Shown here piece after piece: positions 47,154-49,036 of a stretch of 64,000 nt of DNA. The translations under genes and the position numbers were made by a program. The first letter of the stretch is position 1, and each line of letters starts with the position of its first letter. The stretch comes from Octopus vulgaris. Its lineage: Eukaryota. The notes beneath the pieces were generated by a model, which was given only the letters and a program-made list of their open reading frames with translations, searched no databases and was not told the origin of the DNA. The DNA is taken from the NCBI GenBank assembly GCA_951406725.2, contig OX597840.1, positions 15,438,001 through 15,502,000 on the forward strand, given 5' to 3'.

Positions 47154-47362
47154 TTTTCTACTCTAGGCACAAGACCCAAAATTATGGGGGAGGAGGCCAG
47201 TCAATTAGATCGACCCCAGTATGCAACTGGTACTTAATTTATCAACCCCAAAAGGATGAAAGGCAAAGTTGACATTGGCGGAATTTGAACTCAGAACGTA
47301 AAGACTGAGGAAATATATACATATATATATATATATATGCATATATATATATATACAAATAT

Positions 47363-47449
<87 letters not shown>

Positions 47450-47564
47450 CATACACCCATCCACACACACACATATATATAGTCAATTAAAATAAATTAA
47501 TAAAAAGCGGACATGAAGTTGTGCACAAGGAATGTATTCGTTTGATGCTCAGTGAAAGAGGAGA

Positions 47565-47599
47565 GTTTGACATTTCAAGCACAACTCTTTGTCAGAAAC
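47565..47599 (-). ncRNA. Minimal hammerhead motif (decayed) in TA-flanked insert 47485-47650
   Basis: Minus strand: GTTT-CTGACAA-A-GAGT TGT GCTT-GAAA-TG-TC-AAAC. Homologous to 57121-57155. Confidence 0.6.
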
Positions 47600-47650
47600 G
47601 AGAAAGGGAAAAGTCCAAAGAAGGAAAAGAAGTTGCCAACAGCACAAATA

Positions 47651-47682
<32 letters not shown>

Positions 47683-48010
47683 ATGATAAATCTCAGAGCG
47701 AGATCATTGTTTGATTTCACTTTTTCAATATCAGTGTCAATCGATACTGGAAAAAGTATATGTATTTGTGAAGGGAACTGAATTCTCATCGACAACTATG
47801 ATTGTCACACGCCGATGACGGGTCAATACCCTGAAACTCGAGTCCATGTGTATCATAAGTTGAAGACGGGAAGGATGGCTTCCCTTCGCAAATACTGATA
47901 GGGCACAGAAAGTGTGTCTATAGCCAGCTGGAGAAGGTGTCCTCCTGGGGCTACAAACTACAGTATCATCCACCCTTAGGGGTTAGCCATATTCAAATGG
48001 CAAATATACG

Positions 48011-48014
<4 letters not shown>
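47683..48014 (+). mobile_element. ~330-nt highly structured HHR-containing insert in (TA)n (retrozyme-like)
   Basis: HHR at 47806-47850 is nested in stems 47793-47862 and 47762-47895, with several further hairpins. (TA)n on both sides. Confidence 0.75.
47806..47850 (+). ncRNA. Type I hammerhead ribozyme motif (U4C variant)
   Basis: CACACG-CCGATGA-CGGGT CAAT ACCCT-GAAA-CTCGAG-TC-CATGTG. Stem III is the palindrome ACTCGAGT, and the cleavage triplet is GUC. Confidence 0.8.
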
Positions 48015-48050
<36 letters not shown>

Positions 48051-48119
48051 ATGAAAGTACAGCATATAAATTTATAAATTTGTTTATTTAAATTATTGGT
48101 ATTAAAAAAATAAAATTTA

Positions 48120-48317
48120 CAGTAATCCTTCGCCATATCATGGGTCACCTATTACAGTTCACATATCGCGGTTTATTATTTAAGCTTCCATCGATTCCTC
48201 TCTGGTGTTAATAAAAATACATGCACATTACAGTACTGTTTCTACTTCGCAGATAGATTTTTCACTTATTGCAGTGTATCTTGGAATATAACACCTACGA
48301 CAGTCAAGGGATTACTG
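48120..48317. mobile_element. Tc1/mariner (pogo/Tigger-like) MITE
   Basis: TA|CAGTAATCCTT...AGGGATTACTG|TA: TIRs with TA TSD. Confidence 0.8.
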
Positions 48318-48414
48318 TATGTAGGGGGAGAGTTCACGAAAAAAACAAAAGACAAAGACAGGTGGTGTAGAAAACAAACAGATGTATTAGTATAACGCTC
48401 AGGAATTGAAAAAT

Positions 48415-48450
48415 CTTTTACGTTTCGAGCCTATGCTCTTCTACAGAAAG
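48415..48450 (-). ncRNA. Minimal hammerhead motif with CUGUAGA core variant (insert ~48320-48475)
   Basis: Minus strand: CTTT-CTGTAGA-A-GAGC ATAG GCTC-GAAA-CG-TA-AAAG. Confidence 0.7.
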
Positions 48451-49036
48451 GGACACAGAAAAAAACAAGGAGACATTGGGGTTTCTTGCCTTGTATGTCC
48501 CTTTTCACTCTTCAGACCTTACCCTCCACACCCTCTTTTGCCCTCTTTAATGCCCTCCTTCTCTCTCTCTCTCCCTCTTCCCCTCTCTCTCTCTCTTCAG
48601 ACCTTACCCTCCACACCCTCTTTTGCCCTCTTTAATGCCCTCCTTCTCTCTCTCTCTACTGCACTCTCTGTCCTGCACACTGTGCCATACCCCACCTATA
48701 TAATGAGGAATAATACTCGGTCTGTTCAAATTCAATTTCCTTTCTTTCACTCTACTATTACTACTACTAGTAGTAGTAGTATTACTATTGCTGCTGCTAC
48801 TACTACTATTACTATTATTACTACTACACTCTTACACACAATCTCTCCCTCTTTCTCTTCTTTCTTCCATCCTCGTACCTGTGTAAAAAGGACTTGCATT
48901 GAATCTATTGGTATCTTACAGGCCCATTGTCCAACCCTCGGCAACGCTAGCCCCCATCAACTCTTCACCCCTTAGTTACTCATTATTGATTATCTATCAC
49001 TCACATACCACTGTGCATCCCTACAACTATTCAAAT

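Follow-up and report, generated by a model that had tools for sequence, protein, structure and literature searches.

The window, the whole 64,000-nt stretch of Octopus vulgaris DNA that was analyzed (GCA_951406725.2, contig OX597840.1, positions 15,438,001–15,502,000), holds a two-armed insertion in a (TA)n tract. This copy is composed of 312 of the 352 bases of a repeat unit and a 21-nt inverted tail. Its features are as follows.

47648–47681, no strand: (TA)n target, left side, seen in the sequence.
47682–47702, minus strand: 21-nt arm in inverted orientation, unit positions 338 to 6, whose 3′ end is site B, the tail end (L001 1500–1520).
47703–48014, plus strand: sense arm, 312 of the 352 unit bases, ending at site A, with 96–98% identity to the best 40 genomic copies.
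47726–47736, plus strand: CAATATCAGTG, a predicted snRNA-type proximal sequence element inside the 5′ hairpin 47719–47757, matching U1.
47762–47895, plus strand: rod of a 16-bp stem, inner helices, and the helix I extension, with double-sided changes between subfamilies at three rod pairs and a fourth within the middle subfamily.
47788, plus strand: predicted transcription start, unit position 86, deduced from the LINE 3′ ends that join here in L054 and L171.
47806–47850, plus strand: type I hammerhead; the core is U4C, helix III is the palindrome CTCGAG, helix I is mismatched at 47846, and cleavage is predicted 3′ of 47844.
47902–48002, plus strand: four 3′ hairpins, GGCACA/TGTGTC, TAGCC/GGCTA (with an inner stem), ACCC/GGGT, and GCCAT/ATGGC, from folding and alignment.
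48015–48052, no strand: (TA)n target, right side, seen in the sequence.

The initial annotation had described a hammerhead ribozyme nested in a rod of stems, and every motif that it named sits where it was placed. The core CCGATGA (47812–47818), a U4C variant, is followed by helix II (GGGT, 47820–47823; ACCC, 47828–47831), which is closed by a C·U mismatch, and by GAAA (47833–47836). The palindrome CTCGAG (47837–47842) makes a helix III with a 2-bp stem, and TC comes next, with the predicted cut after 47844. Helix I (CACACG, 47806–47811; CATGTG, 47845–47850) contains a C·A mismatch at 47846, where the family base is G, and is extended by CAACTATGAT (47793–47802) and ATCATAAGTTG (47852–47862). 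The strands of the 16-bp stem are 47762–47777 and 47880–47895, and the inverted piece at 47682–47702 lies outside the sense unit. The predicted fold has a minimum free energy of −109.6 kcal/mol against −82.1 ± 5.5 kcal/mol for shuffled sequences (z = −5.0; 0 of 100 shuffles as good), in agreement with the structured RNA proposed earlier. Rfam gave no hammerhead at the gathering score over the whole window, and none among 35 matches at E ≤ 10 for positions 47400–48300; the hammerhead assignment therefore rests on motif inspection and covariation. The copy is without unit positions 313–337 and without a second hammerhead. With 312 nt, the tail, and only one hammerhead, which carries the helix I mismatch, it could not yield unit-length RNA, and it is likely dead as an element, an ordinary insertion each ingredient of which has precedent.

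Other repeats lie in the window. A common dispersed repeat between TA runs, which we take to be SINE-like, occupies 47160–47312, and similar text occurs in the flanks of L100 and L154. The minus strand at 48326–48473, 300 bases from the insertion, carries a degenerate copy of a different minimal-hammerhead repeat, itself very abundant (core CTGTAGA near 48446, helix II GAGC/GCTC, and GAAACGTA). A copy of another minimal-hammerhead repeat, with the core CTGACAA, is found on the plus strand at about 57125.

The unit length of 352 nt was set by adjacent copies (the natural dimer L008 and the array L177), and the locus is thus not the monomeric copy that had been proposed. A search of the species' own genome (2.8 Gb) gave 2,879 candidates, and among the best 40, which were scored, the top ones have 96–98% identity over query positions 21–332. 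One 24-mer of the unit has 990 exact matches in the genome (reversed control, 0), a count that takes arms and array units separately; the sequence is clearly not single copy. As only 26 of the 52 aligned copies match this 24-mer exactly, the true copy number is probably in the thousands. Tandem multimers of the kind anticipated by the initial annotation exist: L008 and L163 are dimers, and L177 is a nonamer with nine hammerheads arranged head to tail and spaced exactly 352 nt apart. The seven full units of L177 differ pairwise by 1–7 bases. Units 2–9 have 14 variable positions, of which 11 are private, and the three variants common to non-adjacent units point to some DNA-level exchange. Unit 3 and a young dispersed copy have 18 differences. 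The longest stop-to-stop frame, measured on this nine-unit array and not on the window copy, encodes 81 aa, consistent with the earlier statement that there is no credible ORF. The array (L177 3430–6550) lies outside (TA)n and interrupts a fragment of another element, presumably a helicase-type transposon from its appearance by eye.

The copies fall into four subfamilies: young, middle (~85%), old (~80%), and fourth (~75%). The middle and old subfamilies came from searches seeded by chance neighbors and the fourth from a motif search. Young copies differ from their own majority sequence by 1.7%, and members of the other subfamilies by about 6%. The copies read are the best-scoring matches, about 135 of thousands, and so lean to long, well-kept copies; 52 of the 77 long copies were aligned, and ten duplicate loci were removed before the ends were counted, leaving 123.

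The ends of the copies follow a simple rule. In the 123 non-redundant loci, the main arm ends at site A (unit 306–320) in 48 and at site B (unit 348–13) in 70, with five ends elsewhere; the two sites are about 45 nt apart, and 86 of the 118 A or B ends run into TA-rich DNA. The 3′ ends are therefore fixed at two sites and not freely permuted, contrary to the circularly permuted ends envisaged at the outset. The 5′ ends are scattered and do not fall at the predicted cut site. An adjacent inverted arm is present in 53 loci: 37 pair A with B, three pair A with A, none pairs B with B, and 13 have one unclassifiable end, so that 37 of the 40 classifiable two-armed copies are of the A+B kind. Judged from these end positions, the A+B pairing is the "tail" signature of Penelope, with a tail at one end only, an inverted 5′ arm, and an AT-rich target; the tail-at-one-end pattern belongs to Penelope-like elements (PMC8557442). 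In vitro, AT-rich DNA is cut on both strands by a Penelope protein, which extends each strand and begins reverse transcription at two internal sites; these sites define the tail (PMC11167929). Hammerhead cleavage was dispensable for insertion in vitro and unprocessed RNA was the main template (PMC11167929); therefore, the footprint does not require a circle. Apart from the variable inverted arms, the copies have no terminal inverted repeats.

The type I hammerhead motif is present in all nine L177 units, and its core is conserved over the 52 aligned copies. In the structure test on these copies, 91.9% of the cells pair, and 99 cells show a double-sided change against 39.6 in shuffled alignments (0 of 500 as high; slid controls, 16–27), with a shuffle control that takes no account of relatedness among copies. 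Folded as a circle, the unit was better than random, with z = −7.5 and −8.8 in two young copies and weaker values, −1.4 to −4.6, in four older single copies. Both strands of the unit fold well. Both-sided swaps between subfamilies occur at four pairs: the long stem has one (A-U/G-C), the extension of helix I two, and the last hairpin one, in which GCCAT/ATGGC reads GCCAC/GTGGC in 32 of 33 older copies. A fifth swap lies within the middle subfamily, and several further pairs change through G·U. At six pairs the pairing is lost in one subfamily or more, and the old subfamily has several broken pairs in the rod. Young and old sequences differ at three of 53 positions in the hammerhead region and at 50 of 267 elsewhere (p = 0.016). 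These data suggest that selection acts on the RNA structure of the repeat.

The core has a history of its own. Older copies read CUGAUGA, with U4 in 32 of 33, and young copies read CCGAUGA in 18 of 19; U4C occurs in 72 of 78 exact cores of the young subfamily. The mismatch that closes helix II is found in the young, middle, and old subfamilies. Among the 11 motifs of the fourth subfamily are CUGAUGA, CUGAAGA, CCGAAGA, and three UUGACAA (a U3-A8 swap), with N7 free, and its helix III is changed to CTGCAG, another palindrome. The U3-A8 swap is known from Penelope hammerheads (PMC4209133). U4C lowers hammerhead activity in vitro, and a viroid with U4C is still infectious (PMC3088659). An autonomous-type Penelope repeat (L097 4806 and 1998) has the U4C core CCGAAGA; U4C thus recurs in unrelated hammerheads of the same genome.

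The sequence upstream of the rod resembles an snRNA promoter. Each of the 15 U1 loci examined, which belong to a single cluster, has CAATATCAGTG upstream, with 11 of 11 bases identical to window positions 47726–47736. ATCAGT lies at −58 from 47788 in the window copy and at −57 to −59 in U1, and AT(C/T)AGT lies at −57 to −61 in 13 of 15 U2 loci, the other two being those abutted by a LINE. The chance of finding the hexamer in a 5-base slot is 0.0015, and 39 of the 45 aligned copies retain ATCAGTG. The vertebrate proximal sequence element lies about 60 bp upstream of the start (PMC4494074). In L054 and L171, which belong to different subfamilies, one LINE 3′ end (93% identity over 202 nt) joins unit position 86, equivalent to window 47788, and the LINE of L171 has a zf-RVT match. 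A related LINE 3′ end (66% over 153 nt) abuts +1 in two of the 15 U2 loci. We infer the start at unit 86 from these LINE junctions in only two loci, and the repeat is likely transcribed from its own snRNA-type promoter. In the U2 genes L203 and L210, a LINE 3′ end stands in place of the promoter and abuts +1. The 3′ end of a different element joins near unit position 91 at about 1480 in L153, and the copies in L033, L042, and L059 begin at unit 81–82, close to the predicted start.

Folding predictions suggest two states of the RNA. In young circles, helix I has a predicted probability of 0.55–0.6 and helix II of 0.03–0.09. When the folded stretch of a natural tandem starts at unit 86 and stops shortly after the second motif, a double hammerhead emerges as the unconstrained minimum, 15 kcal/mol better than two monomers. 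Its probability is about 0.9 in seven of eight adjacent L177 pairs, 0.03 in the last pair, and 0.36 in L008. The probability depends on the ends, falling to 0.00 with 250 nt past the second motif and to 0.46 with an earlier start, and the double hammerhead would accordingly be confined to a co-transcriptional window. Tandem transcripts are thus predicted to fold as a double hammerhead, and circles to keep the ribozyme off. Six of 24 sequencing runs were inspected (X1, X2, X3, X6, X15, and X17), all of them assembled contigs; putative RNA runs and large unlabeled runs give similar depth profiles along the element, and no start or end pile-ups are visible in these contigs. In contig set X2, both hammerhead-type repeats lie far above two other repeats, with a depth that is no measure of expression. 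At 47813, C dominates in X2 (T depth 48/518), whereas T has a depth of 50,248/70,710 in X15.

A search for GIY-YIG proteins gave 6,136 candidates, of which 150 were scored and 148 matched; 30 loci and eight longer stretches were compared with the unit. A young two-ORF Penelope-type family (L091–L098) has a 479-aa upstream ORF and a 781-aa RT–GIY-YIG ORF with many intact copies. Its repeat has a UUGAUAA hammerhead-like motif, and the cysteine linker suggests that the family is of the Neptune/Nematis type. In this family, too, the repeats stop in (TA)n at either of two sites, 40 nt from each other; of 29 terminal matches, 21 lie at one and 8 at the other, and two loci show one end of each kind. 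No sequence common to the 352-nt unit and the 38 Penelope loci was found except for nested copies of the repeat. By tblastn, Penelope fragments are present in nine of 120 loci (three of these are one place, and two another). The initial annotation had allowed that the sequence might be merely the 3′ UTR of a long coding element; no linked ORF was found, as neither the 120 screened loci nor the L177 array shows an ORF followed by the repeat or an RT and GIY-YIG ORF between repeats. The Penelope ORFs beside L008, L022, L120, and L159 were ruled out as partners, each having its own 3′ end, which in L159 is unrelated to the unit. In one of the 120 loci, L154, a Penelope RT fragment (61% identity, residues 363–508) is joined to the 5′ side of the repeat, both lying in one orientation and enclosed by TA runs, and the rest of the Penelope element is absent within 2.3 kb downstream. 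A template switch would explain this chimera, and so could a deletion.

Here, we propose that the window copy is a shortened, two-armed copy of a 352-nt noncoding hammerhead family, and that this family is likely a non-autonomous retrozyme copied by a Penelope-like retrotransposon and likely equipped with its own snRNA-type promoter; we hold this reading with good confidence. Its mechanism would be as follows. The snRNA-type Pol II machinery would start at unit position 86 of a locus longer than one unit, and any more-than-unit copy would regain the promoter because the element lies inside the unit. As the second hammerhead emerges, the two copies are predicted to pair via the palindromic helix III, and the double hammerhead would release a monomer of 352 nt. 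A host ligase would, by analogy, close the monomer into a circle, and the ribozyme, mostly unfolded in the circle by prediction, would leave the circle stable. Both strands of (TA)n would then be nicked by a GIY-YIG/RT protein of the Penelope type, which would begin reverse transcription from two internal positions separated by about 45 nt, a different one for each strand. The products, a sense arm and an inverted arm, would meet at their truncated 5′ ends. Where copying ran on for longer, partial tandems and arrays would result, and the window copy would be such a two-armed product, with a 312-nt arm from site A and a 21-nt arm from site B. Only tentatively do we go further and picture the 352-nt RNA as a self-contained parasite that exploits three machineries. 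It would carry a copy of the U1 promoter element in the circle, a transcription start that favors a co-transcriptional double hammerhead before the ribozyme is switched off in the finished circle, and two start sites on which an unrelated Penelope protein writes both (TA)n strands from one RNA.

The same footprint can be read in other ways, all of them less probable than the Penelope-copied retrozyme. The repeat may be Penelope-mobilized but travel as linear read-through RNA from tandem master loci; circles would not be needed, and the young subfamily would have a weak or vestigial hammerhead. U4C became fixed in the young subfamily during its amplification, internal initiation on uncut RNA suffices in vitro (PMC11167929), and the scattered 5′ ends lie away from the cut site. 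Same-strand GAAAC motifs one unit apart occur in only four of 123 loci, with both hammerheads whole in two. This reading stays alive because cleavage can be dispensable (PMC11167929), but we consider it unlikely: the hammerhead region is the most conserved part across subfamilies, the core and helix III covary in the fourth subfamily, and the close likeness of L177 units 2–9, as compared with their distance from the dispersed copy, fits repeated copying of one template.

If the copies were instead 5′-truncated pseudo-LTRs of an autonomous Penelope-like element not yet found, the tail, the inversion, and the (TA)n footprint would be those seen in autonomous elements, and the small part of the copies that was read leaves some room for it. 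Sense arms longer than one unit, however, have another unit upstream and never the end of an ORF. The nine-unit array has no ORF, the few Penelope fragments in the screened loci do not precede the repeat as an ORF, and the Penelope ORF next to L159 ends in unrelated sequence; this origin seems very improbable. Amplification at the DNA level, as a satellite or MITE-like sequence whose folding is a by-product, would agree with the good folding of both strands and with the array variants common to several units. It is largely refuted by the end-site counts in the 123 loci and hardly deserves credence, given the strand-specific fixed 3′ ends with variable 5′ truncation, the strand-specific covariation of the ribozyme core with G·U-tolerant changes, and inverted repeats that amount to the variable arms.

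The proposed Penelope-copied retrozyme has several known counterparts. The family has those features of retrozymes that sequence and folding can show, with a type I motif in each unit, a short noncoding unit (about 150–400 nt), multimers, and self-pairing; cleavage is predicted, and circles are proposed by analogy. The earlier assignment to a retrozyme family is borne out by the copy number, the absence of coding capacity, the type I hammerhead, the head-to-tail multimers, and the Penelope-type ends, and failed in calling the copy monomeric. The metazoan non-LTR retrozymes of coral, mussel (350–390 bp), and axolotl are alike in their noncoding unit of a few hundred bases, type I hammerhead, low GC content, monomers to multimers, self-paired predicted circle, and co-occurring Penelope-like elements, as far as described in PMC7229834 and bioRxiv 10.64898/2026.07.22.740005. 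In those animals circles and cleavage were shown, whereas the octopus family is known from its sequence and predicted folding. The octopus family differs in the Penelope tail and inversion footprint, the promoter element identical to that of U1, and the U4C core. The word "inverted" does not occur in the text of PMC7229834, nor do "tail" and "promoter" in that of bioRxiv 10.64898/2026.07.22.740005, supplements being outside this scope. In the literature read, Penelope-like elements are proposed, and not directly shown, to move animal retrozymes.

The pseudo-LTRs of endonuclease-bearing Penelope-like elements of the Neptune/Nematis type (PMC8557442, PMC4209133, PMC11167929) are described as having partial tandems, an inverted 5′-truncated arm, a 30–45-nt tail at one end only, (TA)n targets, and a hammerhead with a palindromic helix III, all as in the octopus family. 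In contrast, the octopus repeats have no ORF between them in the loci screened and no similarity to the 38 Penelope loci compared. Satellite 2 of newts is another counterpart, a hammerhead repeat of ~330 bp (PMC7229834) that is reported to use an snRNA-type Pol II promoter inside the repeat (cited in PMC2220036), but the octopus copies are mostly dispersed, truncated, and two-armed, and their promoter is deduced from the motif and its offset. The LINE 3′ ends that abut +1 of two U2 loci and unit 86 of two copies resemble those of target-specific LINEs of the Tx1 clade, among them Keno, which occurs in U2 genes (PMC4494074). This likeness concerns a parasite of the repeat family, and the Tx1-clade label is putative, supported by a zf-RVT match.

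No paper describing the 352-nt family was found in the literature searched, in which it is thus an undescribed retrozyme family by its features; Repbase, Dfam, and supplements lay outside this scope and may hold it under another label. The words "ribozyme" and "retrozyme" are absent from the main text of an octopus repeat paper (PMC13282606). New in the octopus family are the exact U1 match, the history of the core among subfamilies, and the predicted folding switch. The family offers a full insertion signature (two start sites, two arms, a TA target, and one RT chimera) beside an intact candidate enzyme in one genome, together with a predicted promoter and start and natural core variants; small constructs could therefore be used to test trans-mobilization, whether a circle is needed, and what the ribozyme does. 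A weakened U4C core accompanied the most recent wave of spread, and if the parasite reading is true, this would be a natural test of whether cleavage and circularization matter for spread.

The 352-nt family is found in contigs labeled organisms A, B, and D. A second young tandem-forming family (L176 940–1490; G000:C13:22648439) has a unit of ~360 nt, a UUGAUAA core, and a CAUG helix III, with 2,868 candidates. It is 58.6% alignable with the 352-nt unit (415 columns, E 3e-8) and has the same 3′ hairpins.
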